From an uncultured Bacilli bacterium (GTDB taxonomy: Bacteria > Bacillota_I > Bacilli_A > RFN20 > CAG-826): 64,000 nt of DNA. Shown piece by piece: positions 1 to 59,832 of the stretch; position 1 is the stretch's first letter, and every line of letters begins with the position of its first letter. Location: assembly GCA_944336335.1 (NCBI GenBank), contig CALVLC010000029.1, positions 21,844 through 85,843 of the forward strand, written 5' to 3'. The notes beneath the pieces were generated by a model. It was not told the origin of the DNA. It worked only from the letters and a program-made list of their open reading frames with translations, and did not search any database. Made by a program: the position numbers and the translations under genes.

Positions 1-1264
1 CTCTATATCCTTCTTTTTGATATTCCTTAGCTTTATTTTTGTTTGCTTCCTCGTTTAAAACATATTCTGGTGCACCAAGTCGATATGTTTCATCATTTTC
101 AAAAGTAACTTCGCTATACTTAGTTTGTGATGAAAAAGCTTTAAAGTTTTTTACTGTTAAGATTTCTTCACTACCATATTTTTTAACAAGTGCTTTACCT
201 GTTTCGTTATTGTCTTTCATTGCATTAAAATATGATTTAAAAATCGTTTTTTCATTAAAATCCTGGAGTTTTACTAGGTTTTTGAATAAAAAGTGCTGAG
301 TTGTCAGAGTTCCAGTTTTATCTAAACAAAGTGTGTCGACTCTACTTAAATTCTCAATTGCATATAATTCTTGAACCATGGTTTGATGGCGATATAACTT
401 CACAATTGAGGTTGATAAAGTAATTGTTGAAAGCAAAATCATACCAATAGGAATCATACCAACTAAACTAGCTGCACATTTTGTTAAGACGTCTGGAGTA
501 AACACCCAATGTGGTCCACCAATTAAACTTTCACCAACATAAAACATTTTAATTCCGACAACTAAAACAACAGGAATTAAACAAAAAATTAAAATCTTAA
601 TAATTTTATGTATGTTAATTAGAAGTTCAGATTTCTTTTTTGTAATTGATGAAATCTTACCTTCAAGTTTAGCGATATAGGTTTCTTTACCAACTTTTTC
701 AGCAATTAAATAAGCATATCCATTTATTACAAAACTTCCTGATAAAACCAAATCGCCTTTTTTCTTTATTATTGGTTTACTTTCGCCAGTTAAATTACTT
801 TCATTAACTAAAAGTTCACCTTCCATAAGCCTTAAATCACAAGGCACTTCATTTCCGGATTTTAAAATTAATGTATCACCTAAAACTACATCTTCAAGTT
901 TAATATTTACTTCTTTTTCATCTCTAATTCCTAAACAAGTCGGACTAGTGATGAGCTTCATCTTTTCTAAAGTATGTTTTGAAGCTTCTTGCGAAACAAT
1001 GCTACACATGGCATTAAAAAAGATAACAAATAAAAATCCATATTTTGTTATTGGAACGTATTTAATTCCGTTTGGATAAAAAATCTGAAATAATAAGAAA
1101 ACTAAAGCTAAAATGTATAAAATTACATTAAAAAAAGTAAAGAAACTTTCACAAATAATTCTTAAATGCGATTTCCCTTTAACTTTTTCTCTATAATTTG
1201 TTTTATTTTGTCGGGTTAACTCTTCTACTTTTTCAAGAGTTAACCCTTTTTTATATGTTTCCAT
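1..1264 (-). CDS. P-type (E1-E2) cation-transporting ATPase, N-terminal part. The gene runs off the window start.
   Basis: My own translation of the minus strand is open from ATG 1264-1262 down to base 1. It contains the actuator motif NLTGESKP and the phosphorylation motif CLDKTGTLT (about 300-330). The start overlaps the stop of the upstream gene (TAATG). Confidence 0.85.
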   Translation of the reverse strand, partial: METYKKGLTLEKVEELTRQNKTNYREKVKGKSHLRIICESFFTFFNVILYILALVFLLFQIFYPNGIKYVPITKYGFLFVIFFNAMCSIVSQEASKHTLEKMKLITSPTCLGIRDEKEVNIKLEDVVLGDTLILKSGNEVPCDLRLMEGELLVNESNLTGESKPIIKKKGDLVLSGSFVINGYAYLIAEKVGKETYIAKLEGKISSITKKKSELLINIHKIIKILIFCLIPVVLVVGIKMFYVGESLIGGPHWVFTPDVLTKCAASLVGMIPIGMILLSTITLSTSIVKLYRHQTMVQELYAIENLSRVDTLCLDKTGTLTTQHFLFKNLVKLQDFNEKTIFKSYFNAMKDNNETGKALVKKYGSEEILTVKNFKAFSSQTKYSEVTFENDETYRLGAPEYVLNEEANKNKAKEYQKEGYR

Positions 1265-4871: not shown

Positions 4872-6281
4872 TTAATAACGGAAATATTCTTTAACTAATG
4901 ACTTATCACCTTCAATTAAAAAGTCCGCTTTTTTTAAAAGTAAAGCTCTATCGCATAGTGCTTCAGCACATCTTTTATCATGTGTAATAGTAATCATTGT
5001 GTTGCCAGTTTCTTCATGGATCTTATTTAATATTTCGACTAATTTTTTTAAAGAATTGTAGTCTTGACCAACTGTTGGTTCATCAAGTAAAAGAACCTCA
5101 GGTTTCATCGCTAAAATTGTAGCGATTGTAACTTTTCTTTTTTGTCCTTCAGAGAGTGATTGAGGATGTCTATCGCATAATTTTTCTAACGAGAAAAGTT
5201 TAATAATATAATCAGCATAATCTTTATTAAAGGCATTAAAGTAAATTTCATCTTTAACAGTTTTCATAAAGAGTTGATAGTTAGGATTTTGATAAATTAC
5301 ACCAACCTTTTTAAACCATTTTTTGTCTGGCTTGTTTAGTGTTTTTTCACCATCTTTTAAATAAGAAACATATCCACTTTTAACTTTGTTTAACTTAGCA
5401 ATCACTCGCATTAAAGTTGTTTTGCCAATGCCATTTTCACCGAGCAGCAATGCTCTTTCTCCTTGATAAATATCAAAGCTTAGGTTTGATAAAATTGTTT
5501 TATCTTTAACCGAATAATTTATATCTTTAAAAGAAAATATTGGGTTTTTGCAATGTTTTTGATTAATATCATTGATTATTATGCGTTTAATTTCTTCTTG
5601 ATTATATGTCGAAATGTCCATTTCAATAACGCTTTTATTTTCAATTTTTAATATTTTAGAAACATAAGGTTTAATTAAATCAATACGATGTTCAGCAACA
5701 ATTACAGTAAAACCTTTTTTCGTTAACGATAAAAGTATACGCATTAAATCAATGGAGGATTCTTCGTCTAAATTAGCTAGTGGCTCATCTAAAATTATAA
5801 TTTTTTGACCCATTAAAAGAGTTGAACCAGTTATCAATTTTTGCTTTTGTCCGCCTGATAATTTCCTGCAAACTGCTTTTCTATCAAGTTTAAAAATTTT
5901 ACTTATTAATGATATTTTTTGTTCAATAGTTTCTTTCTTTAAACCTAAGTTTTCTCCGCCAAAAGCTAGTTCGTCTTCAACATATTTTTCTATTATTTGA
6001 TTGTCAGCATTTTGTAAAACAATTCCAACATCTATACAAATTTCACTAACTTTTTTATTGATGATATTTCTATCATTAATATCAATTTCACCACTTGCTT
6101 CACCATAAATCAAATTAGGGATAATTCCACTTAACAAATAAATTAAAGTAGACTTTCCTTCACCACTTCCGCCTGTTAAAAGAACAAATTCACCTTCATT
6201 AATTGAAAAATTAACCGCTTTTAAAACGTATTCATCAGCATATTTAAAAGAAAGATTTTTAACGTCGATTACTTTTTTCAT
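4872..6281 (-). CDS. ECF-transporter ATPase, fused duplicated ABC domains (EcfA-EcfA' type)
   Basis: Two Walker A sites (GGSGEGKST, GENGIGKTT), two LSGGQ-type signatures (LSGGQKQK, LSEGQKRK) and two Walker B sites (ILDEP, LLDEP). Confidence 0.85.
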   Translation of the reverse strand: MKKVIDVKNLSFKYADEYVLKAVNFSINEGEFVLLTGGSGEGKSTLIYLLSGIIPNLIYGEASGEIDINDRNIINKKVSEICIDVGIVLQNADNQIIEKYVEDELAFGGENLGLKKETIEQKISLISKIFKLDRKAVCRKLSGGQKQKLITGSTLLMGQKIIILDEPLANLDEESSIDLMRILLSLTKKGFTVIVAEHRIDLIKPYVSKILKIENKSVIEMDISTYNQEEIKRIIINDINQKHCKNPIFSFKDINYSVKDKTILSNLSFDIYQGERALLLGENGIGKTTLMRVIAKLNKVKSGYVSYLKDGEKTLNKPDKKWFKKVGVIYQNPNYQLFMKTVKDEIYFNAFNKDYADYIIKLFSLEKLCDRHPQSLSEGQKRKVTIATILAMKPEVLLLDEPTVGQDYNSLKKLVEILNKIHEETGNTMITITHDKRCAEALCDRALLLKKADFLIEGDKSLVKEYFRY

Positions 6282-6958
6282 AAAACAGTCACCAAAACAA
6301 TAATTGCGATAATTGCGAGCAAAAACAAAACATCATATATTGTTAAATATTCTTTTCGATAAATTGTATAGTTCTTGCTTTTTAAGTCAAAACCACGAGT
6401 TTCAATGCTTAACGATAAGGTATCACTTATATCAACAATTCTTGTTATAAAAGGTATCAAAAATGCTCTATATAAAACTTTTGGATTCAAAATATTATAG
6501 CTTCCTCTAGTTTTCATCGCTTCTTTTATTCTTTTAATTTCTTCAGTTAAGGTTGGCATAAAAGAAAACACAATTAATAAACCAATAACCATTCCTCTAG
6601 GCATACGAATTTGAGATAAATTTCTAGTCAATCTTTCAGCTCCAACACTCATTCCAGGTAACATTCCAACAGTAAAAGAAGCAATTCTATTTACCATGAA
6701 AACAGATTGATCAATACTACTCGAACTCAAATATGTAAAAAGAAAGAAAAAAGAGCCAAATATCGCTAAGAATATAAGTCCTTTCAAACAAGTTTTATAG
6801 TTGATGAAAAGAAAAGAAAGTAAATAAACCGCTACTAAAAAATAGGTACATTCATAGTGTTGAGCATAAACTAAACCAAAAATTACTATTGTTAAACCTG
6901 TTAAAATAGCTAAAAGCGGATAAAGATTGTTGTATTTATAAGTTAAGAAATTTCTCAC
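6278..6958 (-). CDS. ECF-transporter transmembrane T component (CbiQ/EcfT family)
   Basis: Polytopic membrane protein with two coupling Arg-Gly motifs (AMKTRG, SIETRGF). A 4-nt overlap on both sides. Confidence 0.8.
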   Translation of the reverse strand: MRNFLTYKYNNLYPLLAILTGLTIVIFGLVYAQHYECTYFLVAVYLLSFLFINYKTCLKGLIFLAIFGSFFFLFTYLSSSSIDQSVFMVNRIASFTVGMLPGMSVGAERLTRNLSQIRMPRGMVIGLLIVFSFMPTLTEEIKRIKEAMKTRGSYNILNPKVLYRAFLIPFITRIVDISDTLSLSIETRGFDLKSKNYTIYRKEYLTIYDVLFLLAIIAIIVLVTVL

Positions 6959-7659
6959 TTCTTAATAACTCCAGCTTTCTTTAATTCTCTTGTAACAATA
7001 ATCCCAATAAATGCACCTAATGCACAAACCGCAATAACAGCAACGCTCATTCCAATTGCTGTTCCAACATCACTTCCTATAAAAGCACTGACTGCTTCGC
7101 CTTCTTCACCAGTAAATGAATAGAAAAATTTATACCATAAATATAAAAATGGTAAGGTAAGAGGCATATATAAAGTTGCAGCAAAAAATGAAGCCCAGTC
7201 AGATTTATATCCTCTGAAAATTAAAAGAGTTAAAGCTTCACAAATTAGTGCACATAATAAAAGACAAAAGCACATAATAGTGTTCATAAAAATTAGAACT
7301 ATCCCACTAAAAAACGACATGAATAAAAGTGCGCCTGGTTTTCTAACTTTCATCATTCCTATTGCAGGAAATAAAGAAAACTGAACCCCTAAACAAAGTT
7401 CAATAATTCCAAATATTGGAATGTTTGAAACTAAAGGCATGAAGGCACCAGTTAAAAGCATAATTGCGCTAATTATTGCTAAAAATACAACATCTTTTAT
7501 CTTGTATTTTTGAAAGATTTTTTCTTTATTTTGGCTACTTTCTTTATCAATAACCTCGCAATTCTCAACTATTTTTCCTGCTTTAGTGTCAGTTTCTTCA
7601 TTTTCAATAGAACTTAATTTATCTATTAATTCGTCAATTTTATTATTATTTTCGCTCAT
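6955..7659 (-). CDS. Putative ECF S component (Trep_Strep / MptD-like) with a ~60-aa acidic N-terminal extension
   Basis: About 170-aa strongly hydrophobic core ending in a basic tail, RELKKAGVIKK. Its position is immediately 5' of the T and A genes. Confidence 0.55.
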   Translation of the reverse strand: MSENNNKIDELIDKLSSIENEETDTKAGKIVENCEVIDKESSQNKEKIFQKYKIKDVVFLAIISAIMLLTGAFMPLVSNIPIFGIIELCLGVQFSLFPAIGMMKVRKPGALLFMSFFSGIVLIFMNTIMCFCLLLCALICEALTLLIFRGYKSDWASFFAATLYMPLTLPFLYLWYKFFYSFTGEEGEAVSAFIGSDVGTAIGMSVAVIAVCALGAFIGIIVTRELKKAGVIKK

Positions 7660-15686: not shown

Positions 15687-17540
15687 CTATTTTTTATACA
15701 TATTTGATAATTTTTTACTAACTTTTTTCTTAAGTGGTATCAAGACACTGCTTGGTTCATTAAGTACACTTGTTGCAAAAGTATAAATTCCTTTTTTAAC
15801 AAGTAACTCAATTTCTTGCCAGCTACGAGCTTCGTAACTAATAATTGGTTTATTGAATTTAGCCATCTTGTTATAAAGCGCATAGGTGTCTTGAACAGAT
15901 TTGCTTTCAATTTTGAAGTTGTTCGGCAAGTGAGAATTTATAAGGAAACCATCAAACATAGTATAGGTTTTTTCTCTTAAAATATAATCACCTAAATTAA
16001 TATTTAAATACACTTCATATCCACGATCTTTTAATAAACCAATGTGATTCAAGAAAGTCTCTTTAATTGTGTCGCCTTCTTTATCACTATCAATTGGAAT
16101 TAAATCGTTGTTATTCAATATCAATATTAAGTTTAAATTATCAACACCACTCATATGTGGGAAATTTCTAACCATGAATTCTACTTCATTAAATGAAATA
16201 AAATATGCTAGTTTTGTGGTGATATTTTCTTTTTCATCGTTAAATACAGGTATTACATCTTTAACGATTAATGAAGATAATTCTTTAGTTAAATTATATT
16301 TTAAAGCCGAAGCTTTAACTTCATTAATATCTTTAAATATTGATAAACGGGGTTGAACTAACGCGATATATCCGGGGTTCATAACACGGACATTTGCAAT
16401 TCTATAAATACCTAAGAAATTTACAGTTAATAAATTCATACGGATAATTTTTTGAACTTCCATTTTGTATGAATCTTCAATGTTAGCATTTGCCCCAAAT
16501 TCATCTTTATAAACAAGATATTTTCTTTCACCTTCTCTTGCTAATCGATTAAGACGAGTCAAAATATCAACACTTTTAAGGAAATCTTTATCAAGTTTAT
16601 TAATTTGTCCAGCGCTTACAACATAATCATAATAAGTAAATAAACCTCTTACTTCTAATAAATAGTCAATCTTTTTTATTTGTTTTTTTACATCGTTAGT
16701 AATTCGGCCAATCGTTGAAATATTTTTAGTTGAGATTCCGATATCGCTATTTTTATAACTGATTATCACAAGTTCTAAAGGTTCAGTATCACTAAAAACA
16801 TAATAATATTGTTGCCCTTTATTATTGATATTACGGTGTTTATGGTAAATCGCATTTAAAAATTGGTAACGAATTTCATATTCATTATGAGATGAAGGAA
16901 TATTGTTATTTTTATAAAATTTAACTAAATACATCGCACCATACTTAAATTTGTTTTGCATATAAAGATGGTTAATGTCTTTAATTGAATATAGATCGCT
17001 TAATTCATGTTCAATGCCTTGATTAGCCTCAACTGGAAGATTGTATAAGAAATGTGCGTTAAAATATAAAACTTTTTTAGCTTTATTGATCTTTGTGCAG
17101 CAAAGCAATAGTTTAAAAGTGTATTTTAAAATATCCTTTCTTTTTAAATCACCTTCTGAATAATCAAACAAACGAACTGTATCTTCGCTGTCGGCTAAAA
17201 CCTGTCCACTTAAAAGACTTTTTATCCATTTATCGAATTTATTAGCGTCATTTTTATAAAATCTCTTAACAAATTCTTCATAAGGAATCGTATTAAGATT
17301 TTCTAACTTCTTAAAATTAATAATTTTTACAGTTTGATTTTGATAATCAATATAAAGGGCATGTTCTGCATTTAATTCATGTTTTAATTTAATCTCAGAA
17401 TTTTTACTTTTTATAAATCCAACAATATAAATTGCGATTGCAACGAGAATAAAGAAAACAGTAATCGACCAAAAAATTATGGCAAATAGATTGCCATCAC
17501 TAATTGGACTTAAGACGTTTACTGGTAACTTCATGCTCAT
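15687..17540 (-). CDS. Membrane-anchored protein with degenerate GGDEF-like and EAL-like regions
   Basis: One N-terminal TM. The C-terminal region follows the EAL domain block order (LVQPRL ~ QPi; NINLGDY ~ DDFGTGY; IISYEARSWQEIELL ~ vAEGVEt.eq), but the catalytic residues are replaced. Confidence 0.45.
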   Translation of the reverse strand: MSMKLPVNVLSPISDGNLFAIIFWSITVFFILVAIAIYIVGFIKSKNSEIKLKHELNAEHALYIDYQNQTVKIINFKKLENLNTIPYEEFVKRFYKNDANKFDKWIKSLLSGQVLADSEDTVRLFDYSEGDLKRKDILKYTFKLLLCCTKINKAKKVLYFNAHFLYNLPVEANQGIEHELSDLYSIKDINHLYMQNKFKYGAMYLVKFYKNNNIPSSHNEYEIRYQFLNAIYHKHRNINNKGQQYYYVFSDTEPLELVIISYKNSDIGISTKNISTIGRITNDVKKQIKKIDYLLEVRGLFTYYDYVVSAGQINKLDKDFLKSVDILTRLNRLAREGERKYLVYKDEFGANANIEDSYKMEVQKIIRMNLLTVNFLGIYRIANVRVMNPGYIALVQPRLSIFKDINEVKASALKYNLTKELSSLIVKDVIPVFNDEKENITTKLAYFISFNEVEFMVRNFPHMSGVDNLNLILILNNNDLIPIDSDKEGDTIKETFLNHIGLLKDRGYEVYLNINLGDYILREKTYTMFDGFLINSHLPNNFKIESKSVQDTYALYNKMAKFNKPIISYEARSWQEIELLVKKGIYTFATSVLNEPSSVLIPLKKKVSKKLSNMYKK

Positions 17541-17541
17541 A

Positions 17542-17566
17542 TACTTTAGTATTATATACTAAAGTA
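17542..17566. promoter_or_regulatory. 25-bp palindrome TACTTTAGTAT-tat-ATACTAAAGTA abutting the start codon of the EAL-like gene
   Basis: Perfect 11-bp arms. It ends 1 nt from ATG 17540-17538. There is no SD between them. Confidence 0.5.
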
Positions 17567-19695: not shown

Positions 19696-19786
19696 GGAGA
19701 AATACCCAAGTGGCTGAAGGGATCAGTTTCGAAAACTGAAAGTAGGTTTACGCCTAGCGCGAGTTCGAATCTCGCTTTCTCCGCCA
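19696..19786 (+). tRNA. tRNA-Ser (anticodon CGA), class II with long variable arm, CCA encoded
   Basis: Manual fold: acceptor GGAGAAA/TTTCTCC, anticodon stem TCAGT/ACTGA with loop TTCGAAA, long variable arm, T-arm GCGAG-TTCGAAT-CTCGC, then G-CCA. Confidence 0.95.
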
Positions 19787-22462: not shown

Positions 22463-22516
22463 TTTTAATCCTCCAATCTCATGAATTTATTTAAAAACCC
22501 AGCAAAAATAAGGTTT

Positions 22517-26118: not shown

Positions 26119-26152
26119 GAGACTCTTCAAATTAGTGGAGTCTCTTTTATTT
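26119..26152 (+). terminator. Rho-independent terminator after degV
   Basis: GAGACTC-loop-GAGTCTC followed by TTTTATTT. Confidence 0.7.
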
Positions 26153-26166
26153 AGAATTAATAGCGT

Positions 26167-26219
26167 TTTTGCAGGCTTTTTAATTAATTAGTTGGTTTTT
26201 AGTAGACTTTTAGTATAAA
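26167..26219 (+). repeat. Intergenic element copy A (TTTGCAGG-T5 box plus 3 x 11-bp-phased TTAGTA)
   Basis: TTTTGCAGGCTTTTTAATTAATTAGTTGGTTTTTAGTAGACTTTTAGTATAAA. Hexamers at 26188, 26199 and 26210. Confidence 0.8.
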
Positions 26220-36792: not shown

Positions 36793-36847
36793 TTTTTTAC
36801 TAAATAAGTACTAATTTACTACTAATTTGGCCAAAAACCCTGCAAAT
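36793..36847 (-). repeat. Intergenic element copy B
   Basis: Minus strand: ATTTGCAGGGTTTTTGGCCAAATTAGTAGTAAATTAGTACTTATTTAGTAAAAAA. TTAGTA begins at 36825, 36814 and 36803. Confidence 0.8.
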
Positions 36848-36860
36848 CTCCATTTAAAAT

Positions 36861-36887
36861 TAAAAAAGCTAGGTTTTTGACCTAGCT
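36861..36887 (-). terminator. Rho-independent terminator after eno
   Basis: On the minus strand: AGCTAGGT-caaaa-ACCTAGCT followed by TTTTTT. Confidence 0.8.
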
Positions 36888-36914
36888 TTAAATTTTAAAT
36901 TTGTTTAGATTAAA

Positions 36915-45788: not shown

Positions 45789-45904
45789 AAAAAGACAATA
45801 AAGTGATTTTACGCTAAATTTCATCTTTTTCAATTAGAAATTTGTAGAGCATAAATTGTTACAATATAGTAAATAAAGTAGCAATTACAAGAAAGATACT
45901 AAAG

Positions 45905-45923
45905 TTTTGCAGGCTTTTTAATT
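45905..45923 (+). repeat. Partial copy C of the intergenic element (box only)
   Basis: TTTTGCAGGCTTTTTAATT is identical over 19 nt to copy A. It overlaps the uvrB stop codon. Confidence 0.6.
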
Positions 45924-47897
45924 CAATTCTGCCTTTAATTCAAACATAATATCTCTAAGTTTGATAGCTTTTTCAAAGTCAAACTCTTTAGAAGCTTTAT
46001 ACATTTCTTTTTCGATTTCCTTGATTTTCTTTTGAAGTTCTTTCTTTGTTAACTTAGCTTTTGAATTAACAACTTCTTCAGCTTCTGTTTCGGTGTTATG
46101 AATTGGAGCAGTTATTGCCTTAACAATTGTCGTTGGAATAATACCATTTTCGTCATTGTACTTGGCTTGAATCTCACGACGTCTATTCGTTTCATCAATA
46201 CATTCTTGCATTGATTTAGTTATGGAATCAGCATACATAATTGCTTTACCATGGCTATTTCTTGCGGCGCGTCCCACAACTTGGATCAAACTTCTAGTAC
46301 TACGTAAAAATCCTTCTTTATCAGCATCTAAAATTGCAATTAAACTAACTTCAGGAATATCAAGACCTTCTCTTAAAAGATTGATACCAACTAAGACATC
46401 GTATTTACCTTTTCTTAATTGATAAATAATTTCACTTCTTTCTAAAGTTTTACACTCACTATGCAAATATACAGTTTTGATCTCTCTATCTTTTAAATAT
46501 GCGGTCAAATCTTCTGCTGTTTTGATAGTAAGAGTGACAATCATGACCCTTTCGTTTTTAGCAATTCGATCTTTAATTTCGCTAATTAAATCATCAATTT
46601 GACCTAAAGTTGGACGAATCTCAATTTCTGGATCGAGTAAACCAGTAGGTCTAATAATTTGCTCAACATACTGACCATTAGTTTTTCCAAGTTCATAATC
46701 CCCCGGGGTCGCACTTGTGCAGATGACTTGATTTATTTCACCATCAAATTCTTCAAAATTTAAAGGTCTATTGTCAAGCGCACTTGGCAATCTAAATCCA
46801 TAATCAACAAGAGTAACTTTTCTAGAATGATCGCCATTATACATTCCTCTAACTTGTGGAAAACTAACATGACTTTCATCAACAATTAGCAAATAATCTT
46901 TTGGAAAATAGTCCATCAAACAAAATGGTTTTTGACCTGGTTTACGGTTATCAATATGTCTTGAATAATTTTCAATACCTGGACAAATTCCAAATTCTTC
47001 TAAAGAGGCAATATCTTGCTTTGTTCTCATTTCAATACGCTCTTTTTCAAGAGGTTTTGCCTCTCTCTCAAAGTAAGCAATTCGTTCATCAAGTTCTTCA
47101 AGGATTGATTTACATGCTCTTAAGATGTTTTCTCTTGTTGCGGCGTGGTCATAAGCAGGAAATAAATCATAATAGTGATATTTTTCAATAATTTCGCCAG
47201 TTAAGTAATTGCATTTTGCAATTGTCTCAACTTCATCACCAAAACAATCTAAACGGATGTACCAATCATCGCTATCGGCGGGCATAATATCGATTAAATC
47301 GCCATGAACTCTAAATCTACCTGGACTTAATTCAATATCGTTTCTTTTATATTGAGAATTTAAAAGTTTACCAAAAAATTCTTTGCGGTTAATTTCTTCG
47401 CCAACTCTTACATCAAAAACAAGTTTTTTGTATTCATCAGGATCTGTTAAACCATAAATCGATGCAACCGAAGCAACTACGATCGTATCTCTTCTACTAA
47501 CAATAGAATTTACAGCACTGACTCTCATCATTTCGATTTCTTCATTCATAAGAGCAGACTTATCAATATAAGTATCCGTTGATGGAATATATGCTTCTGG
47601 TTGGTAAAAATCAAAGTTTGAAACAAAATATTCGACCCTGTTTTCTGGAAAAAGTTCCTTCATTTCTGCATAAAGTTGACCAGCCAGAGTTTTGTTATGA
47701 ACCAATATTAAAGTTGGTCTTTGAACTTTTTCTATAACATTAGCCATAGTAAAAGTTTTACCAGTACCAGTTGCGCCTAATAAAACTTGATACTTTTTTC
47801 CTTCATTAAGACCTTTAACAAGTTCTTTTATTGCAGTAGGTTGGTCGCCAGTTGGTTTGAATTCACTATGTATTACAAAAGGTTTACTTTCATTCAT
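45918..47897 (-). CDS. uvrB: Excinuclease ABC subunit B
   Basis: GATGTGKTF Walker A, DESH box, helicase motifs and a C-terminal UVR domain. Confidence 0.97.
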   Translation of the reverse strand: MNESKPFVIHSEFKPTGDQPTAIKELVKGLNEGKKYQVLLGATGTGKTFTMANVIEKVQRPTLILVHNKTLAGQLYAEMKELFPENRVEYFVSNFDFYQPEAYIPSTDTYIDKSALMNEEIEMMRVSAVNSIVSRRDTIVVASVASIYGLTDPDEYKKLVFDVRVGEEINRKEFFGKLLNSQYKRNDIELSPGRFRVHGDLIDIMPADSDDWYIRLDCFGDEVETIAKCNYLTGEIIEKYHYYDLFPAYDHAATRENILRACKSILEELDERIAYFEREAKPLEKERIEMRTKQDIASLEEFGICPGIENYSRHIDNRKPGQKPFCLMDYFPKDYLLIVDESHVSFPQVRGMYNGDHSRKVTLVDYGFRLPSALDNRPLNFEEFDGEINQVICTSATPGDYELGKTNGQYVEQIIRPTGLLDPEIEIRPTLGQIDDLISEIKDRIAKNERVMIVTLTIKTAEDLTAYLKDREIKTVYLHSECKTLERSEIIYQLRKGKYDVLVGINLLREGLDIPEVSLIAILDADKEGFLRSTRSLIQVVGRAARNSHGKAIMYADSITKSMQECIDETNRRREIQAKYNDENGIIPTTIVKAITAPIHNTETEAEEVVNSKAKLTKKELQKKIKEIEKEMYKASKEFDFEKAIKLRDIMFELKAELN

Positions 47898-48993
47898 GTT
47901 TTTCGATTGTAGAATCTTCTACTTTTTCTTCTGAAATCACATTATTTTCAGAAGTTTCTTTCTTTTTGCTTTTTATCTTTTTCTTTAATTTATCGAAATA
48001 TTTTCCAGTACTATTTAAATTTAAATTTTCAAAACCTTCACCACCAGTAAATAAAGTTTGATAGAAAGTACAAAAAGCTTTTGGATCAATTTTTGCGATA
48101 CCACTTCTTATTTTGTTGTAATCTCTTCTTGAAAATACAATTCTTACCATTGTTTTTTCTTTACCAGAATAAGCACCTTTTACTTTAGAAATAGTCGCAC
48201 TTCTATCTAATTCATCGATTGAAAATCTACAAATTTCATCAACTTTATCAGTTACAATATCAACACAATAAGCACTAGTTTGACCACTATAAATTATTTC
48301 AACCATGAGTGAACACATAAATGCCGAAATAATACCAACCAATCCACCAATTAAAGCGATACTATTTCCCTTTGTTAAATCGATAATAATACCAATAAGA
48401 ACAATGCCGCCATCAAATAAGAAGAATGGAATGGATTCCTTTATTCCAGTAAATTTACTTACTATAAAAGTAAGAATATCAATGCCGCCAGTTGATCCGC
48501 CACCATGAAAAGTGATTGAACAACCTAAACCAACAATGAGTCCACCAAGTAAACCAATTACAAGCAAGAAGCCACCATCAATGCCGATTTCAGCTAAATT
48601 AGTTATAATTCCATTTTCTAAAATATAATGTGATTCCTCGCCCAACAAAACATTTAAGAATTCAGGTAATATTGGCGTTCTAAGGAATATAGATATAAAA
48701 ACTGGATAAAAAATAGTTGAGATTAGCGAGGATATTGTAAATTTAAAGCCTAATAATATTAAACCGATTACAAATAAAACCCAGTTTAAAATATAACTCA
48801 TAATATCTGGAGCGATAAATTCCGCGGTCAAAATTGTAATTCCGCTTACACCACCACTGATAATAGAAAAAGGAATTAAGAAGAATGCGTTGCCAGCACT
48901 AACTACAAAAGTTCCAAACAATACTAAAAATAAATTTCGTAAATTTCTTTTTAGATTGTCTTTTTGAAGAAAAACTTTTATATAGTTAAGCAT
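47890..48993 (-). CDS. YitT-family membrane protein (with DUF2179-type C-terminal domain) and a Lys/Glu-rich tail
   Basis: Five to six TM segments followed by a soluble domain ([12 protein letters not shown]..). 8-nt overlaps with both neighbours. Confidence 0.75.
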
Positions 48994-50096
48994 TCTTTTT
49001 CGCCTCCTCTTTTAAATAAGAGAAAATAAATCCTTCAATGTAACCATCCATAACTTTGTTAACTTGTGTATCTTCGTAATTTGTACGATTATCTTTAACC
49101 AGAGTGTAAGGACAGAAAACGTAACTTCGAATTTGAGAACCCCACTCAATATTTTTTTGTTCCCCTACTATACCTTTAAGTTTATTTTTTCTTTCTTCTT
49201 CTTGTCTAGCAAAAAGTTGAGACTTTAACATGTTCATTGCAAGTTCTCTATTTTTAAGTTGAGTTCTTTCGACTTGGCAAGAAACGACAATTCCAGTTGG
49301 GATATGTGTGATTCTAACAGCTGTTTCAACTTTATTAACATTTTGACCGCCAGCTCCTCCAGATCTATATGTATCAATTTTTAAATCTGCAGGATTAATT
49401 TCAACGTTAACTGAATCGTCAAATTGAGGAATAACATTTACACTTGCAAAACTGGTATGTCTTCTAGCGTTGGCATCAAAAGGAGATATTCTAACAAGAC
49501 GATGAACTCCTTTTTCGCCTTTTAACATACCATAAGCGTATTTTCCTTGAATAAGGACAGTTACGCTTTTGACTCCGGCTTCTTCACCAGGTAAGAAATC
49601 TAAAATTTTATAAGAAAAATCTTTTAACTCACAAAATCTTTGATACATTCTTAAAAGCATATTAGCCCAGTCACAAGCTTCTGTGCCGCCTGCACCTGGA
49701 TGAATTTGAATAACACAATCTAAATTGTCATATTCACCACTAAAAAGAACAAGAGTATTTAGTTCTTCTAACTCTTTCTCTAAATCCTTATAAGAGGAAA
49801 CTAAAAGTTCAGACATCTCTTCATCATTAATGTCTAAAGTTTCTGCTAATTCGTTTAAATCTTTAATAGAAGAAGCTAACTTTTTATAAAGACTTATTTT
49901 ATATAATATGTCGTTTTTTTGATCAATTATTTTAGAAGCTTCTCTTTGATTGCTCCAAAAGTCGTCTTTTAAAGATAAAGCTTCTAATTCTTCAGCTTTT
50001 TTGCTTAATTTATCTAGGTCAAAGAGAACTACCAAGCTGTTCAATTTGCTCGGTAGCCTCTTTTAATTGGTTTTTAAATTCGTATAAATCAATCAT
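48986..50096 (-). CDS. prfB: Peptide chain release factor 2, with a programmed +1 frameshift
   Basis: ATG at 50096 opens a 25-codon frame ([25 protein letters not shown]) ending at CTT TGA C (50024-50018). The +1 frame continues as [10 protein letters not shown].. and contains SPF and GGQ motifs. Confidence 0.93.
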
Positions 50097-50107
50097 TGAC
50101 AACCTCC

Positions 50108-52702
50108 TTAGTTAGTGTGGATATCATCATATTCATGATCTACTGCTGCTTTTGCATTTTTATCAATATCTGTAATATTAAGATCTTTTGCGTTCTCTTT
50201 AGAAACAACTTTCATGTCTTTCGTTGGTTCGTTTGTTGCTTCTGGTTGTTTATGAACTTCGTTTTGAGCTTGTGTATTTACAGCGTATGTGTCTTTTTGT
50301 TCATCAACTTTCTTTTGAACCTTAACGTTTAATAAGTTAAGGACAACTTCAAGTGAAATTGTTTCAAGCATATCTCTGAACATTGCCCAGCCTTCATTAA
50401 CATAATCTTGAAGTGGGTTGATTTGACCATAACTTCTTAAAGAAACTGATTCTCTAAATCTAGACATATTGTCGATTTGTTGCGTCCAGTTTCTATCAAT
50501 GCATCTAAGTGTAATTTGTCTTTCGATTTGATCAGCAGTTTCTTTATCCCATTCTCTACGTTTAATCTGATAAGCGTTAGCAAGAACTTCACCAATATCT
50601 TCACCAGCTTCTTCAGGAACTGCTTCATCGTATAAATCCCAGTTGATTGCACTATCTTCAAGGAATCTAGGGACTGCTAAATCATGTAATTTCTTTGAAC
50701 TAACAGTTCTATTTGTTTGTTCATCAAAGATACTTCTTTTACAAAGTGCAACACCACAATCTTTAAATGTATCAGATAATAAATCGTTAATATCTTTAGC
50801 AAAAAGGATTTGGTCACGCTTTGCATACATAATTTGTCTTTGTTTACTTAAAACATCATCATAATCAAGTAAGTTTTTACGAACATCGAAGTTTTGGCCT
50901 TCAATTCTCTTTTGTGCGCTTGTAATTGCACTACTTAATAATCTGCTCTCAATTGCTTCATCACCATAATTTGCAAATGATTTTCTTAGATTATCACTGG
51001 CAAATCTAACCATTAATTCATCATCGAGCGAAACATAGAATCTTGAGAATCCTGGATCACCTTGACGTCCACTTCTACCTCTTAATTGGTTATCAATACG
51101 TCTTGATTCGTGTCTTTCAAGACCAAAAACACATAAACCACCTAATTCTCTTGTTTCAGCTGTAAGTTTAATATCGGTACCTCTACCAGCCATATTGGTT
51201 GCAAGAGTAATACGATTTTTCTCGCCTGCATGAGAGATAATTTCAGCTTCTCTTGCGTGGTTTTTAGCGTTTAACATTTCGTATCTTAAACCAGCTTCAT
51301 CAAGATATTTTGCAACTTCTTCACTTGCTTCAACGCTTGGAGTGCCAATTAAGATTGGTTGACCAAGACTATGTCTTTCGACAACTTCCTTAACAAGCGC
51401 TTTAATTTTTGCTTGTTTTGTAGCAAAAATATAGTCAATTTCATCTTTTCTTATGACAGGTCTATTTGGTGGAATACAAACAACCTTCATATTATAGATT
51501 TTTCTAAATTCTTCTTCTTCGGTTTTGGCAGTACCAGTCATACCGGCCATTTTCTTAAATAATCTGAAGAAATTTTGGTAAGTAATTGTAGCTAATGTAA
51601 CTGTTTCTTCTTTAATTTTAACGCCTTCTTTAGCTTGAATAGCTTGTTGCAAACCATCACTATATTCTCTACCTTTTAAAACACGACCAGTGAATTGGTC
51701 AATAAGTTGAATTGTGTTGTCTTGGTCGACAAGATATTCAACATCTCTTGCCATAATATAGTTAGCTTTCAATGCTTGGTGAATTCTATGAACTAAATCT
51801 TGAAATTGAGGAGCATATAAGTTTGGAATGCCAAACATTTTTTCAGCTTTATCAACACCTTTATCAGTTAAAGAACAGGATTTAGTTTTAATATCAACAA
51901 CGAAATCTCCATCAGGTACATAATCTGGGTGTTTTCTCTTGTAATCTTCATCAACATCTGTGGATCTTCTTAAAGTTTTAACAAATCTATCAGCAATTTG
52001 ATATTGTGACATTGATGCTTTAGCACCGCCAGAAATAATAAGAGGTGTTCTAGATTCATCAATTAAAACACTATCTGCTTCGTCAACAATACAGTAATTA
52101 AGTCCTCTTAAAACACGTTGTTGTTTACTTGGAGCCATGTTGTCTCTCAAGTAATCAAAACCAAGTTCAGAGTTAATTGTATAAGTAACATCGCATTGAT
52201 GAGCTTTTTGTTTTTCTGAAGTTGTTAAACTATGTAAATTAACACCAACTGAAAGACCTAACCAACGATAGACTTGGCCCATTTCGTTAGCGTCTCTTTG
52301 TGCTAAGTATTCGTTAACAGTAACAACATAAACACCCTTGCCTTCAAGTGCGTTCAAATAAACTGGCATTGTAGCTGTTAATGTTTTACCTTCACCGGTT
52401 TTCATTTCAGCGACGTCGCCATCATTCAAAACAAGACCACCAATAACTTGGCATTCGAATGGGTATAAGCCTAAAACTCTTCTTGCGGCTTCTCTACAAA
52501 CAGCAAAAGCTTCAGTCTTAATGTTTTCTAAGGTTTCACCGTTTTTTAATCTGTTTCTAAATTCAGTTGTCTTTGCTCTGAGTTGATCATCACTAAGTTT
52601 TTTCATGTCTTCAGCAAGTGCTAAGACTTTTCTAGCTTCTTTTACATATTTTTTTAAGATGTGTTGATCTACTCTAAATATTTTTTCAATTACATTTCCC
52701 AT
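50108..52702 (-). CDS. secA: Preprotein translocase ATPase SecA (no C-terminal zinc-finger tail)
   Basis: Full-length SecA pattern (MKTGEGKTL, DEVDS-type box VDEADSVLIDE). The C-terminal ~100 aa has no Cys. Confidence 0.97.
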   Translation of the reverse strand: MGNVIEKIFRVDQHILKKYVKEARKVLALAEDMKKLSDDQLRAKTTEFRNRLKNGETLENIKTEAFAVCREAARRVLGLYPFECQVIGGLVLNDGDVAEMKTGEGKTLTATMPVYLNALEGKGVYVVTVNEYLAQRDANEMGQVYRWLGLSVGVNLHSLTTSEKQKAHQCDVTYTINSELGFDYLRDNMAPSKQQRVLRGLNYCIVDEADSVLIDESRTPLIISGGAKASMSQYQIADRFVKTLRRSTDVDEDYKRKHPDYVPDGDFVVDIKTKSCSLTDKGVDKAEKMFGIPNLYAPQFQDLVHRIHQALKANYIMARDVEYLVDQDNTIQLIDQFTGRVLKGREYSDGLQQAIQAKEGVKIKEETVTLATITYQNFFRLFKKMAGMTGTAKTEEEEFRKIYNMKVVCIPPNRPVIRKDEIDYIFATKQAKIKALVKEVVERHSLGQPILIGTPSVEASEEVAKYLDEAGLRYEMLNAKNHAREAEIISHAGEKNRITLATNMAGRGTDIKLTAETRELGGLCVFGLERHESRRIDNQLRGRSGRQGDPGFSRFYVSLDDELMVRFASDNLRKSFANYGDEAIESRLLSSAITSAQKRIEGQNFDVRKNLLDYDDVLSKQRQIMYAKRDQILFAKDINDLLSDTFKDCGVALCKRSIFDEQTNRTVSSKKLHDLAVPRFLEDSAINWDLYDEAVPEEAGEDIGEVLANAYQIKRREWDKETADQIERQITLRCIDRNWTQQIDNMSRFRESVSLRSYGQINPLQDYVNEGWAMFRDMLETISLEVVLNLLNVKVQKKVDEQKDTYAVNTQAQNEVHKQPEATNEPTKDMKVVSKENAKDLNITDIDKNAKAAVDHEYDDIHTN

Positions 52703-52853: not shown

Positions 52854-52869
52854 CAAAAACTATGCAAAA
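52854..52869 (-). repeat. Partial, degenerate copy E of the intergenic element (box only)
   Basis: Minus strand TTTTGCATAGTTTTTG, 11 nt after the comFC stop. Confidence 0.45.
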
Positions 52870-52879
52870 CTTCGCTTTT

Positions 52880-53629
52880 TTATATAATTTCAAGATTAGA
52901 AATACCTTCATGCTTCTTTAATTCTTCAACTTCGTTCTCACTAAAAACTCTTTTAGCAACTACTAAAACTTGAATTTTTGTCGGTTCGAATTTCTTTAAC
53001 ATTTTTATACAACTTCTTAAAGTTGACCCCGTTGTACAAACATCATCAACGAACAACAATTTTTTACCTTTAAAATCTATGCTCTCCTCATTTTTTAAAT
53101 GGATATATTTATAAACTTCCTTTCTGTCTTTGTATTTTTGATTTGATTGTTTATGTTTTTCACTTTTATAAAATATGTCGCGTATTTTTAAGCCAAGACA
53201 ACTAAACATATAATAAACATGATTTTCTTCTTTATGAGAAGGAACTAGCACTATTTCAAAATCATGATATAAAGTTTTTAGTTCTGATATAAAAGGTGCG
53301 ATAAAAACATTAGCTAACTCAAAATCACCACATCCTTTATATTGATATATCTTTTCTTTAACAAAGTCAGCATATTCATAAATCGCTAAACATTCAGTAT
53401 CATCTATCTTAAACTCTATAAATTTAGGACTTAAATGGTTCAAACAGTTATAACAAATAATTCCGTTATTTAAAAAGTCGTGGTAAGCACCATTCTTTAT
53501 TTCTTTAAAACAAATCTTACAAACTTTTGTTGGCATTGATAATTGTTTGGCGGGCTTCAACCATCTCTTTAGTTTTTCTAGTTCCGATAAAAATAACTTC
53601 TCCATCTGTTGCATCTTTTTTTCTTCCAA
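52880..53629 (-). CDS. comFC: ComF-family protein ComFC (phosphoribosyltransferase-like)
   Basis: N-terminal CKIC..CYNC zinc motif and PRTase loop LLFVDDVCTTGSTL. The true start may be Met32 (53536), which reduces the overlap with comFA. Confidence 0.8.
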   Translation of the reverse strand: MEEKKMQQMEKLFLSELEKLKRWLKPAKQLSMPTKVCKICFKEIKNGAYHDFLNNGIICYNCLNHLSPKFIEFKIDDTECLAIYEYADFVKEKIYQYKGCGDFELANVFIAPFISELKTLYHDFEIVLVPSHKEENHVYYMFSCLGLKIRDIFYKSEKHKQSNQKYKDRKEVYKYIHLKNEESIDFKGKKLLFVDDVCTTGSTLRSCIKMLKKFEPTKIQVLVVAKRVFSENEVEELKKHEGISNLEII

Positions 53630-54653
53630 CTCGACCAGAGATTTGGATTAAAGCTTCTTTTGTGTATATAAAAGATGAGGCGTTAAAGATTATCACCTGT
53701 AAATTCTTTAATGTGACTCCTCTTTCAAGGACCGCTGTTGTAACTAAAAATTTATATTCGTGATTTCTGAATTTTTCAATACGCAAACTTCGATCTTTGC
53801 ATTTAGAATGTACGAAGTTTCCAGAAACCTTAAATAATCTCATTATCATAAACAAATTTTCACACTCTTCTATAGTTGGCGCAAATATCAAAAGTGGCTT
53901 ATCTTCTTTCATAAACCTGCAAAACTTAAAACAAAGATAAAAATAATTAACAATTTTTAAGTTCACAAAAATTGATGGTTCGGGAATCTTTTTACCATGA
54001 TAACGCTTAAATAAAGTTACAACATCATGATCTTTTTGATGATATTTTGATAGTAATTTTTCAGAAGGTGTAGCTGACATTAAAACATGGTTGCCGCGAA
54101 CACTCCTTTCAAAAAAGCTTTCTAAAACATCATTATCTTTATACGGAAAAGCATCAACTTCATCTAAAACCAAAAGATCAAAATATTTTTCATAACGAAA
54201 CAATTGATGAGTTGTTAAACAAATAATATCACCTTCTAAAACCGAATTATGTCCACCATAAACACAAATTACTTTGTAATTTTTAAATGCATCTTGAAGT
54301 CTAGTTGCAAGTTCAATTACTACATCTCTCCTCGGAATTGCAAAACCGACTTGTAAATGATTTTTTAATGCAAACTCTATTGTTGCATATACAAGTTCGG
54401 TTTTGCCCGCTCCGCAAACAGCATAAATGAGTGTATTGATTTTCTTTTTATAATTGTTAAGCACTGCACTAGACACTCTTTTTTGATCTTCGCTTAATTC
54501 ATAATCGATTTTTAGGTATCCTCTATATGAGTGATATTCGAATTCTTCCGCTGCTTCTCCTTTAAAAGAAATGCATTTTCGACAATAAGGAACACCATTT
54601 TTATAGCCTATGTATTTTTCATCTTCATTACCGCATAAAGAACACTTAAATAT
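53517..54653 (-). CDS. comFA: Competence helicase ComFA (DEAD/DEAH-like), extended 5' to include an in-frame zinc ribbon; non-canonical start
   Basis: Walker A AVCGAGKTE, DEVD box, SAT (SATP). The frame stays open 177 nt upstream of the first canonical start (GTG 54476) and encodes CSLCG-x16-CRKC. ATA 54653-54651 is the first sense codon after an in-frame TAA, 9 nt from GGAGG. Confidence 0.75.
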   Translation of the reverse strand: MFKCSLCGNEDEKYIGYKNGVPYCRKCISFKGEAAEEFEYHSYRGYLKIDYELSEDQKRVSSAVLNNYKKKINTLIYAVCGAGKTELVYATIEFALKNHLQVGFAIPRRDVVIELATRLQDAFKNYKVICVYGGHNSVLEGDIICLTTHQLFRYEKYFDLLVLDEVDAFPYKDNDVLESFFERSVRGNHVLMSATPSEKLLSKYHQKDHDVVTLFKRYHGKKIPEPSIFVNLKIVNYFYLCFKFCRFMKEDKPLLIFAPTIEECENLFMIMRLFKVSGNFVHSKCKDRSLRIEKFRNHEYKFLVTTAVLERGVTLKNLQVIIFNASSFIYTKEALIQISGRVGRKKDATDGEVIFIGTRKTKEMVEARQTIINANKSL

Positions 54654-54689
54654 TTAAAAAAACCTCCTTTCACTAATATAAAGGAGGTT
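54654..54689 (-). terminator. Rho-independent terminator after rpiB. Its 3' arm is the comFA Shine-Dalgarno.
   Basis: On the minus strand: AACCTCCTTT-atattagtg-AAAGGAGGTT followed by TTTTT. Confidence 0.8.
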
Positions 54690-54722
54690 TTGCGGAAAAA
54701 TTTAAAAATTTTTGAAATTTTT

Positions 54723-55759: not shown

Positions 55760-56616
55760 AATTCATAACCTCTTGATACAAATAAGAAACGTACTCTGTC
55801 ATAAATATCTTTTACAAAAGAAAAACAAACTCCATCCTCAAAATATTTTGATAACAAAGAAGTAAGTTTTTCTTTTTGATCATAATTAATTTCAAAAGCT
55901 AGTAAGAAATTATCATTTAAAACATCTTTGTAGTGCTTAAAAACTTCTTCATAAAATGCTGTTCCATCTTCTGAATAAATCGCATTCATTGGTTCATTAT
56001 TTTTAACTTTTTCCTCAATGTCATTTTTATTTTCTACATAAGGAGGATTAGAAATTATTACATCAAATTTCTTTTTCACCTTAATAAAAGGTTCAAGTTT
56101 ATCGCCTTGTACAAAGTTAATATCTAATTTAAAGTTTTCGGCATTTTTCTTTGCGACATCTAAAGCATCAAAAGAAATATCACTAGCAAAAATGTTTGAA
56201 TCAGGAAATGACTTTTTTAAATATAAAGCAATGCATCCAGAACCAGTGCACATGTCAAGAATAGAATCATTTTTAATATTAAGTTTCTTTATTAAGTCAC
56301 AAGTTCTTAAAACAAGTTCTTCGGTTTCAACTCTTGGAATCAAAACTCTTTCATCTACATAAACATTTAAATCTATAAATGGTGCCTCATTTAAAACATA
56401 TTGAATAGGTAAACCATTAAACAATTTTTGCTTTAATTCAAAAAAATAGTTGAGATTTGCAACGTTTTTGTCAAAATTCAAAGTAAGTTGACTATAATTT
56501 TCTAAGTTATTTACTTTCTCTAAAAGTAGAAAAATCTCGCTTTTAGAAATCTCTAAAGACTTTTCTTTTATTTCTTTAAGTGTTTCGAAATATAATTCTC
56601 TATTAGTTAATGCCAT
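55756..56616 (-). CDS. prmC: Release-factor glutamine N5-methyltransferase
   Basis: SAM motif DMCTGSGCIAL and catalytic NPPY (ISNPPYV). Start set at Met18 of the track ORF (14-nt overlap with prfA). Confidence 0.9.
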   Translation of the reverse strand: MALTNRELYFETLKEIKEKSLEISKSEIFLLLEKVNNLENYSQLTLNFDKNVANLNYFFELKQKLFNGLPIQYVLNEAPFIDLNVYVDERVLIPRVETEELVLRTCDLIKKLNIKNDSILDMCTGSGCIALYLKKSFPDSNIFASDISFDALDVAKKNAENFKLDINFVQGDKLEPFIKVKKKFDVIISNPPYVENKNDIEEKVKNNEPMNAIYSEDGTAFYEEVFKHYKDVLNDNFLLAFEINYDQKEKLTSLLSKYFEDGVCFSFVKDIYDRVRFLFVSRGYEL

Positions 56617-57802: not shown

Positions 57803-57856
57803 TTTATACAAAAAACCTACTAAAAATATACTAATTTACTTAAAAACCATGCAAAA
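57803..57856 (-). repeat. Intergenic element copy D
   Basis: Minus strand: TTTTGCATGGTTTTTAAGTAAATTAGTATATTTTTAGTAGGTTTTTTGTATAAA. Hexamers begin at 57834, 57823 and 57812. Confidence 0.8.
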
Positions 57857-57862
57857 CTAACG

Positions 57863-59644: not shown

Positions 59645-59807
59645 TTTTGTATGCCCCTTATCGAGTAAAATATTTTCGCAAAAACGTCTTTGATTTTCAA
59701 TCTTTAAAAGCCTTCAATTGGTTAAAATCTTTAATTTGTTTTAGCATTTTTTCGAACAAATATTTTCTCTATTTTACCTTTTGTCTTTTTTAACCGTTTA
59801 ATTAACG

Positions 59808-59815
59808 TGTATAAT
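59808..59815 (+). promoter_or_regulatory. Extended -10 element (TGTATAAT) upstream of dnaX
   Basis: It sits 17 nt upstream of the dnaX ATG region. No clear -35. Confidence 0.4.
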
Positions 59816-59832
59816 TAATAAAGGTATTATTC

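Follow-up and report, generated by a model that had tools for sequence, protein, structure and literature searches.

A dispersed, oriented DNA motif with helically phased A/T tracts in uncultured low-G+C bacteria, possibly a DNA uptake signal

The window analysed here is a stretch of 64,000 nucleotides (64 kb) from contig CALVLC010000029.1 of an uncultured Bacilli bacterium; it has ~29% G+C, TGA reads well as a stop codon, and it comes from the same species as MAG GCA_949286765.1. Overlapping contigs lengthened it by ~0.9 kb on the right and by nothing on the left. Three of its intergenic regions carry copies, named A, B and D, of a short element made up of a box, TTTGCA(G/T)G-T5, followed by three TTAGTA-like hexamers. 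Copy A lies between the convergent genes degV (+) and a Cof-type HAD hydrolase (-), copy B follows eno, and copy D follows an ABC-exporter open reading frame (ORF). The copies and the terminators beside them are listed here, with E values from a profile built from relatives only (see below).

26168..26181, plus strand: box of copy A, TTTGCAGGCTTTTT; 5′ TTGAG part degenerate, ATAG just upstream; profile match 26168-26211, E=0.019
26188..26215, plus strand: hexamers TTAGTT/TTAGTA/TTAGTA of copy A, its phased T-tract flank; starts at 26188, 26199 and 26210, 11-bp period
26119..26144, either strand: bidirectional hairpin terminator, GAGACTC-12 nt-GAGTCTC with A-/T-run flanks, between degV and copy A
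36833..36852, minus strand: core of copy B, TGGAGATTTGCAGGGTTTTT, box 36846-36833; 1 mismatch to the family core; profile E=1.5e-7
36798..36825, minus strand: hexamers of copy B, TTAGTA three times; starts at 36825, 36814 and 36803, 11-bp period
36865..36889, minus strand: canonical terminator hairpin of eno, directly before copy B
57842..57861, minus strand: core of copy D, GTTAGTTTTGCATGGTTTTT, box 57855-57842; 2 mismatches; profile E=1.6e-4
57807..57834, minus strand: hexamers TTAGTA/TTAGTA/TTTGTA of copy D; starts at 57834, 57823 and 57812, 11-bp period

All three sequences were verified at these coordinates. An annotation made without database searches (the sequence-only reading) had described three near-identical sites with hexamers exactly 11 bp apart, and both points hold: the spacing is exact in A, B and D, and the first hexamer begins 20 nt from the start of TTTGCA in A and 21 nt from it in B and D. 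Moreover, the sites exceed chance. Allowing at most 1 mismatch, TTTGCAKGSTTTTT occurs 6 times in the window against 0.54 expected, and TTAGTA-N5-TTAGTA likewise occurs 6 times, all within A, B and D, against 0.96 expected; a count of 6 was reached in 0/100 shuffles for either pattern.

Copies A and B lie beyond the terminator of the gene that each follows, and the hairpin at 26119..26144 is distinct from copy A, which sets the element apart from the terminator. A co-oriented MFS/glycosidase (sugar) operon lies downstream of copy B, its probable promoter more than 100 bp away. The box of copy D starts 8 nt past the ABC-exporter ORF, the core as counted overlapping the stop codon, and the co-oriented prfA lies downstream. 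The DNA behind eno varies in other material: in ERZ28613100 scaffold_7727 (L007:1349-1700; L-numbers denote loci fetched around matches in other genomes) an identical enolase is followed by different DNA that holds a variant box, gagTTTTGCAAGTTTTTT, instead of copy B, which points to strain-level turnover of this intergenic region.

The element is not peculiar to the window. The sequence-only reading had staked it on conservation in relatives, and further copies were found there by pattern scans covering one genome per GTDB species. A first scan recovered array-type copies from related low-GC metagenome-assembled genomes (MAGs) at L001, L059, L045/L068 and L029. Scanning with TTGAGNTTTGCANGGTTTTT then yielded at least 88 distinct true copies in at least 21 MAG species of 22-33% G+C, with perfect cores numbering at least 5-14 per genome in several of these species: at least 14 in CASFZJ01 and at least 9 in each of CAMNHN01, JAXDXW01 and CALVRY01. 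High-GC and proteobacterial matches were single chance or coding matches. The carrier MAGs are labelled 'uncultured Mollicutes/Bacilli' or Candidatus (Ca.) Onthovivens. Their composition and TGA-stop usage agree with what has been published on the gut orders RFN20 and RF39 (PMC7301438), and we infer that they belong to RFN20/RF39-like orders. In 636 kb of sequence around the copies, 56 more differ from the core at 1-3 positions, where shuffling leaves only 1, giving ~1 degenerate copy per 11 kb besides the perfect ones. The overall density is about 1 per 7-12 kb; extrapolated from the 636-kb and window counts, this suggests ~100-200 copies per genome, fewer than the classical USS/DUS (uptake signal and DNA uptake sequences) reach.

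A profile built with nhmmer from relatives only retrieved 9 members from the window at E<0.02, three of them within genes, and A, B and D were among the nine; these copies are therefore members of a dispersed family. Some sites are kept at orthologous positions across species, namely after degV (window and L029), at ffh/trmD (L045 and L068) and at prmC (window, L023 and L039). We considered whether the prmC copies in L023 and L039 were chance matches and rejected this, as both are perfect members and the site is occupied in the window too. Outside these genomes array-type copies were scarce: one JGI metagenome scan gave only 2, the clade being poorly represented there. Two repeats that contain TTTGCAxGGTTTTT are unrelated to the family. 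One, in the Planctomycetaceae genome JAISQK01 (L063, L074, L113, L127, L161 and L172), is more than 60 bp long with nearly identical copies. The other is a hairpin repeat, TTTGCAAGGTTTTT...AAAAACCTTGCAAA, in Prolixibacteraceae JAVEYG01 and Paludibacter sp. JAVFAG01 (L064, L135, L141 and L163), two genomes from the same Biofilm4 assembly.

Comparison of the copies redraws the element. The family core is ~28 nt long, AAAATAR-TTGAGW-TTTGCAN-GGTTTTT, lies between an A-run and a T-run, and contains the box described above as its 3′ part; the conserved word reaches ~14 nt upstream of that box. At positions -7 to -2, which were unused in selection, 80% of copies or more have AAAATA, and position -1 is A, G or T, so that TAA or TAG often stands just before the core. 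Similarity is confined to the core, the flanks being alike in composition only. Dialects of the core include TTCTGCA, TTTGCGA and the window's own form; in the window species the 5′ TTGAG has drifted to TGGAG or to a G-deleted TTAG, or has been lost.

The flanks nonetheless share a rhythm of composition. Fourier analysis was applied to 78 copies that had been picked for their core only, whether or not TTAGT was present. The G+C content dips at about -14, -5, +26, +37, +48, +59 and +70, and the dominant period is 11-11.5 bp in both flanks, with amplitudes of 0.048 and 0.034 against 0.009 beyond +100. The TTAGTA hexamers of A, B and D coincide with the troughs at +26, +37 and +48. Arrays of TAGT-N7-TAGT accompany ~5-10% of cores in relatives (4 of about 80 core-ascertained copies) and are sometimes upstream of the core or inverted (L220, L229 and L245). 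Thus, the 11-bp phasing is family-wide and the TTAGTA word is a local, lineage-specific sharpening of it. What the family conserves is the box with its 5′ extension and not the hexamer triplet.

The placement of the copies relative to genes is distinctive. Counting as in-gene those inside ORFs of at least 600 nt, 62 of the 88 copies (about 70%) are intergenic and 26 (about 30%) lie in ORFs. For 52 intergenic copies both neighbours are visible: 19 are tandem sense, 13 tandem antisense, 14 convergent and 6 divergent. A co-oriented gene lies downstream of 25/62 intergenic copies. In 37 copies the gene on the left points the same way as the element, in 21 the other way; hence the co-orientation with the preceding gene that had been noted for degV, eno and the ABC exporter is correct for A, B and D and fails as a family rule. 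What recurs is proximity to a stop codon. Among the co-oriented copies 24/37 start at most 16 nt past the upstream stop codon, which is often the motif's own TAA/TAG (-3 to -1) or the TGA within TTGAG. The 13 copies that are antisense to both neighbours nevertheless abut a stop codon, 9/13 ending at most 28 nt from the stop of the other gene. Some convergent spacers of 33-51 bp (L238 and L274) are made of the element alone, with no hairpin, and where hairpin terminators are present they occur on either side of the element. At L207:3937-4026 (minus strand; CAJJXG010000008.1) the core is directly followed by an inverted copy of itself (GAGATTTGCAAG-GTTTTT-CTTGCAAATCTC, then a T-run), and the two form a perfect bidirectional terminator hairpin with a 12-bp stem between convergent genes; it is the sole such pair in the 88.

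Orientation relative to local GC skew was 49 against 31, with 8 copies in near-zero skew. Polar oligomers such as Chi and the chromosome-segregation words KOPS (FtsK orienting polar sequences) and SRS (SpoIIIE recognition sequences) are words of 5-8 nt that are strongly co-oriented with replication. This class, together with Ter, was rejected for the motif, a ~28-nt word of which only ~61% of copies in skewed regions (49/80) are on the G-rich strand. Taken together, the placement, terminator and skew data argue against a promoter or operator, a transcript-specific RNA and a replication-polar signal. The skew of the window itself changes sign at ~59645-59832, with minus-strand genes to the left and dnaX-ybaB-recR-tmk (+) to the right; by eye, this 188-bp spacer holds no DnaA-box-like sequence, and it could be a replication-related switch or a mere change of transcription strand.

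The copies inside genes are the most informative about how the motif arises. On the coding strand they use both frames left open by the TGA of the core (LRFARFF, xEFCRVF and LSFAGFF) and on the antisense strand all three frames (KNLANLN/KNPAKLN, EKPCKTQ and KTLQNST). In purB (adenylosuccinate lyase) of three species (L180, L204 and L248) a perfect core occupies an ungapped conserved stretch adjoining the catalytic THG(M/V)HAE motif, where FGLKLALWHEE in B. subtilis 1F1O corresponds to FGLRFARFFDE. The core there employs two rare codons, TTG and AGG; in window genes TTG accounts for 9% of the Leu codons and AGG for 4% of those for Arg. Moreover, 20/20 nt and 6/6 third-codon positions of the core are identical in the three species, compared with 45/100 third positions outside it. 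A flavin/NAD oxidoreductase (L196 and L206, from different species) also carries a perfect core and aligns across it to PDB 6QKG with no motif-sized insertion, only a 2-residue gap beside the motif. The in-gene copies were therefore made by substitution, not by insertion or transposition. The substitution origin, the rare codons and the third-position identity indicate that the motif is selected or driven at the DNA level.

The window contains the following members of the family besides A, B and D.

56450..56469, plus strand: aaaaaaatagTTGAGATTTGCAACGTTTTT, the best match in the window (profile 56434-56491), within prmC and antisense to it; E=2.1e-8
45900..45919, plus strand: box copy TAAAGTTTTGCAGGCTTTTT (profile 45902-45953), overlapping the uvrB stop codon and antisense to both neighbours; E=4.3e-5
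52855..52874, minus strand: CGAAGTTTTGCATAGTTTTT (box 52855-52868; profile 52890-52850), 5 nt past the stop of a ComF-family-like gene; E=4.8e-3
7549..7568, minus strand: in-gene copy ggaaaaatagTTGAGAATTGCGAGGTTATT (profile 7576-7544), on the coding strand of ORF 6955-7659; E=7.5e-4
264..283, plus strand: TGGAGTTTTACTAGGTTTTT (profile 249-294), 3 mismatches; E=5.6e-3
5541..5560, plus strand: degenerate copy TGGGTTTTTGCAATGTTTTT (profile 5529-5588), antisense in the ABC-ATPase gene 4872-6281; E=9.7e-3
22493..22512, minus strand: weak box copy CTTATTTTTGCTGGGTTTTT (box 22493-22506), between two small ORFs; profile E=0.72

The box-only copies that the sequence-only reading had placed at 45905-45923 and 52854-52869 exist, the second as the box 52855-52868, and the 19-mer at the former is the same as in copy A. 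The TAG and TGA of ggaaaaatagTTGAGAATTGCGAGGTTATT are out of frame with ORF 6955-7659. Membership of CTTATTTTTGCTGGGTTTTT is doubtful because of its E value. A perfect 23-bp palindrome, ACTTTAGTATATAATACTAAAGT, at 17543-17565 (minus strand) has the TTAGTA word in common with the phased-tract element, yet is a separate feature; it is centred on TATAAT a short way before gene 15687-17540 and resembles an operator that overlaps a -10 element. A similar sequence, ctttagtatataa, stands after a family copy at L251.

We consider that the family is probably a dispersed motif recognised by a protein at the level of DNA, rather than a local regulatory site, promoter, terminator, RNA or insertion sequence (IS) end. 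As to what reads it, we tentatively favour a self-DNA tag resembling an uptake signal, and put this at roughly 0.3. The nearest analogue is the uptake signal sequence (USS) of Pasteurellaceae, in which an oriented core has helically phased T-rich tracts on one side, and which is tolerated in genes and paired as terminators (PMC3458573). By that analogy, the motif might be the first DNA uptake signal sequence outside Proteobacteria, read by the competence machinery of small-genome gut Bacilli, its candidate hosts possibly being the RFN20/RF39-like 'Mollicutes', Ca. Onthovivens and relatives, which are largely uncultured.

A, B and D are a local dialect of a clade-wide oriented motif, their 3′ tracts sharpened to TTAGTA, and under this hypothesis the motif would act as double-stranded DNA, not as RNA. 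The core would be the word that a DNA-binding machine recognises, and the adjoining DNA would bend more easily for its phased A/T tracts, which are most pronounced 3′ of the core. The most likely machine would be the DNA-uptake (competence) apparatus, with the motif as its self-DNA tag. Copies would accumulate by point mutation, biased uptake and recombination, and would persist where they are tolerated: just behind stop codons, in convergent spacers and at permissive codons. The data show the family, its anatomy, its rise by substitution within genes and its concentration at gene ends, in the non-coding DNA under least constraint; the involvement of a protein that reads the core, a role for bending and the identity of that protein with the uptake machinery are steps that we infer.

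Several points weigh against an uptake signal. Sequence-specific uptake has been reported only in Pasteurellaceae and Neisseriaceae as of 2026 (PMC13020248); it has never been shown in Bacillota, to which the small-genome hosts of the motif belong, and the prior for this reading is therefore low. The density of ~1 per 7-12 kb is 5-10 times below that of H. influenzae, and inverted terminator pairs are rare (1/88). About 70% of copies fall in the ~10% of sequence that is non-coding, a bias far above that of USS, and many abut or supply a stop codon, which could reflect a gene-end function instead. A regular-expression scan for pilins and ComEA in ~0.8 Mb from ~20 genomes, too little to judge by, revealed no uptake pilus, ComEA or ComEC. 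The window does hold a comF-like locus on the minus strand, with a DEAD/Helicase_C (ComFA-like) protein at 53517-54476 and then a phosphoribosyltransferase (PRTase)-like protein at 52880-53629, upstream of secA (50108-52702) and prfB (48986-50044). However, the best NCBIfam match of the PRTase-like protein, 'ComF family protein', is below the cut-off (66.6 vs 233.6 bits). Next to the helicase, a Cys-rich, zinc-finger-like coding stretch at 54477-54722 is split from its ORF, the translation of 53517-54722 having 2 stops; the split may reflect a frameshift, a decayed gene (pseudogene) or faulty assembly.

Alternatively, the motif could be an architectural or topological site at gene ends, where a nucleoid-associated protein or a gyrase-like topoisomerase binds the core; we regard this as possible, if doubtful. 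The phased tracts would then wrap or bend ~90 bp, and transcription supercoiling would be absorbed or partitioned, as with the repetitive extragenic palindromic (REP) sequences and bacterial interspersed mosaic elements (BIMEs) in role, though not in form. The 11-11.5 bp periodicity runs over ~90 bp on both sides of the core, as such a site would predict. Stop-codon proximity matters and gene orientation does not, being seen in co-oriented (24/37) and antisense (9/13) copies alike; convergent spacers are enriched (14/52), some of 33-51 bp holding the element only, and the density is REP-like. To our knowledge, the B. subtilis xenogeneic silencer Rok is confined to the Bacillus subtilis group. 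Its preferred pentamers TACTA/AACTA are reverse-complemented in TTAGTA/TTAGTT (PMC6212790). However, ~30% of perfect copies lie within genes and are spelled with rare codons, which is unexpected for a gene-end device, and the sites known for gyrase and nucleoid proteins are degenerate rather than 20-nt words kept across many species.

The same placement would suit a protein-mediated insulator or terminator, in which a core-bound factor blocks RNA polymerase both ways in compact intergenic DNA, replacing hairpin terminators or backing them up, an explanation that we think improbable. Copies start 1-16 nt past stop codons and often supply the stop itself, convergent pairs at L238 and L274 are parted by the element without a hairpin, and the A-run/T-run frame of the core resembles a bidirectional terminator. 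On the other hand, the core has no hairpin potential, copies within long ORFs, where both orientations occur, would cut short transcription of the genes that hold them, a good hairpin terminator often adjoins the element on either side, and A and B are already beyond the terminator of the preceding gene. An intrinsic hairpin terminator was rejected outright, in agreement with the sequence-only reading: the element lacks a stem, and the canonical terminators nearby are separate features. We also considered a half-terminator with a distant partner arm, seeking an inverted copy (at least 12/13 positions) within 200 nt either side; L207 alone had one, and this too was rejected.

A selfish or formerly mobile short repeat of the REP, BOX or miniature inverted-repeat transposable element (MITE) kind, spread by a transposase or gene conversion and with no host function, appears quite unlikely. 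The family is dispersed, mainly extragenic and clade-restricted, degenerate copies occur beside perfect ones, and the copy number is that of REP, BOX and RUP. Nevertheless, the element is not palindromic and has neither terminal inverted repeats nor a target duplication, similarity stops at the core, the in-gene copies arose by substitution in ungapped conserved protein segments, and orthologous sites are kept across species. A REP/MITE-type mobile repeat was accordingly rejected, there being no inverted partner or structure and the in-gene copies not being insertions. A phage or mobile-element origin was rejected as well, as the 2.9 million viral contigs of IMG/VR gave 1 match only. The identical 19-mers at 26167 and 45905 do not bound a prophage attachment (att) site or island either, since the interval contains the housekeeping genes eno, secG, folD and uvrB.

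A local cis-regulatory site, as originally suggested, would have the three phased direct repeats bound by an OmpR/PhoB-type, winged-helix or iteron-binding protein. The exact 11-bp spacing in A, B and D speaks for it, as does the position of B and D upstream of co-oriented genes (the MFS sugar operon and prfA). Against this, copy A faces a convergent gene, as does the copy linked to degV in L029, and no rep gene or iteron cluster is present. Furthermore, more than 90% of family members are without arrays, and at ~100-200 copies per genome, ~30% of them in genes and the promoter side avoided, the sites are too numerous and too often coding for a regulon. We therefore regard this suggestion as very unlikely. 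That the element is not a promoter, as had also been proposed, is borne out by a scan of A, B and D, which detected no sigma-70-like site on the element's strand and promoter-like counts equal to those of shuffles. Reading TTGAGW-N17-(A/T)AAAWT as a -35/-10 pair was rejected, as the would-be spacer is the best conserved part. Sigma-54, SigH and ComK-box sites, assessed by eye and by the promoter scan, were rejected on unfit spacing or conservation.

Lastly, a structured or protein-bound RNA of the 3′ untranslated region (for stability, processing or as a small RNA, e.g. UAG repeats read by a ring protein) can be dismissed as extremely unlikely: many copies between stop codon and terminator would be transcribed, and A, B and D have UAG triplets at an 11-nt period, but the element occurs in either orientation to the transcript, is often past the terminator, and shows no consensus structure, covariation or Rfam match. 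Single-sequence folds of 10 copies had z-scores near 0, no better than shuffles unless an unrelated terminator was included, and RNAalifold on 27 copies returned 0 consensus pairs. Searching the window against Rfam 15 matched no family to the element; only tRNA-Ser reached its gathering score. This is a lone tRNA-Ser (anticodon CGA) at 19696-19786 (+) among minus-strand genes.

Whatever its function, the motif has consequences beyond this window. Uptake-signal signatures are known from only two proteobacterial families, and debate continues over their receptors and over why they evolved. Another, independent case with a core and phased T tracts, in reduced-genome uncultured gut Bacillota, would be valuable. 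If the uptake tag is real, its architecture would be a convergent solution, and competence would be implied in a major unculturable gut lineage, with sequence-selective natural transformation or DNA scavenging where none is known. The sequence of the tag would also help to find the receptor through phylogenetic profiling and to follow recombination in metagenomes. If, instead, the motif is an architectural or insulator site at gene ends, it would still be a new class of non-palindromic extragenic element, one that is conserved between numerous species and prevails over codon preference even within essential genes. In practical terms, it may serve as a diagnostic marker for binning contigs of the clade.

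The sequence-only reading knew of no described element with this consensus, and we likewise found neither an Rfam family nor a literature match; searching the literature for the box string gave unrelated papers only, none on such an element. Among known systems, the operators of OmpR/PhoB-type regulators (PhoP, TTAACA-N5-TTAACA; WalR, TGTWAH-N5-TGTWAH) share the 11-bp centre-to-centre spacing of the hexamers in A, B and D. However, the motif lies off promoters, its arrays are a minority and lineage-specific, and its sites run to hundreds per genome, genes included. With Rok there is a resemblance in sequence only, TTAGTT/TTAGTA being the reverse complements of AACTAA/TACTAA (PMC6212790), whereas the family-wide feature here is T-tract phasing and not the AACTA/TACTA pentamer. 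Like the REP/BIME sequences of Enterobacteria, the motif is extragenic, found past stop codons and in convergent spacers, and present at similar density. In E. coli, REP/BIME sequences bind gyrase and IHF and are proposed sites for bending or wrapping proteins. REPs are, however, imperfect, hairpin-forming palindromes that owe their spread to RAYT transposases, unlike the motif, which lacks dyad symmetry and arises in genes by substitution.

The closest likeness is to the USS of Pasteurellaceae and, more loosely, the DNA uptake sequence (DUS) of Neisseriaceae. As there, an oriented, non-palindromic core is joined to phased T-rich tracts, and copies occur genome-wide in both orientations with no replication polarity. 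They enter genes in several frames by substitution, are enriched in non-coding gene ends, form an occasional terminator pair (L207), and are found clade-wide with dialects. Beyond the differences in density, intergenic and stop-codon bias, terminator pairing and host group weighed above, the motif departs from USS in its unrelated sequence, in a core of ~28 nt against 9-12, and in phasing that extends on both sides over 4-5 turns. The family is undescribed, and in kind it is akin to the USS/DUS class of 'genomic signature words'.

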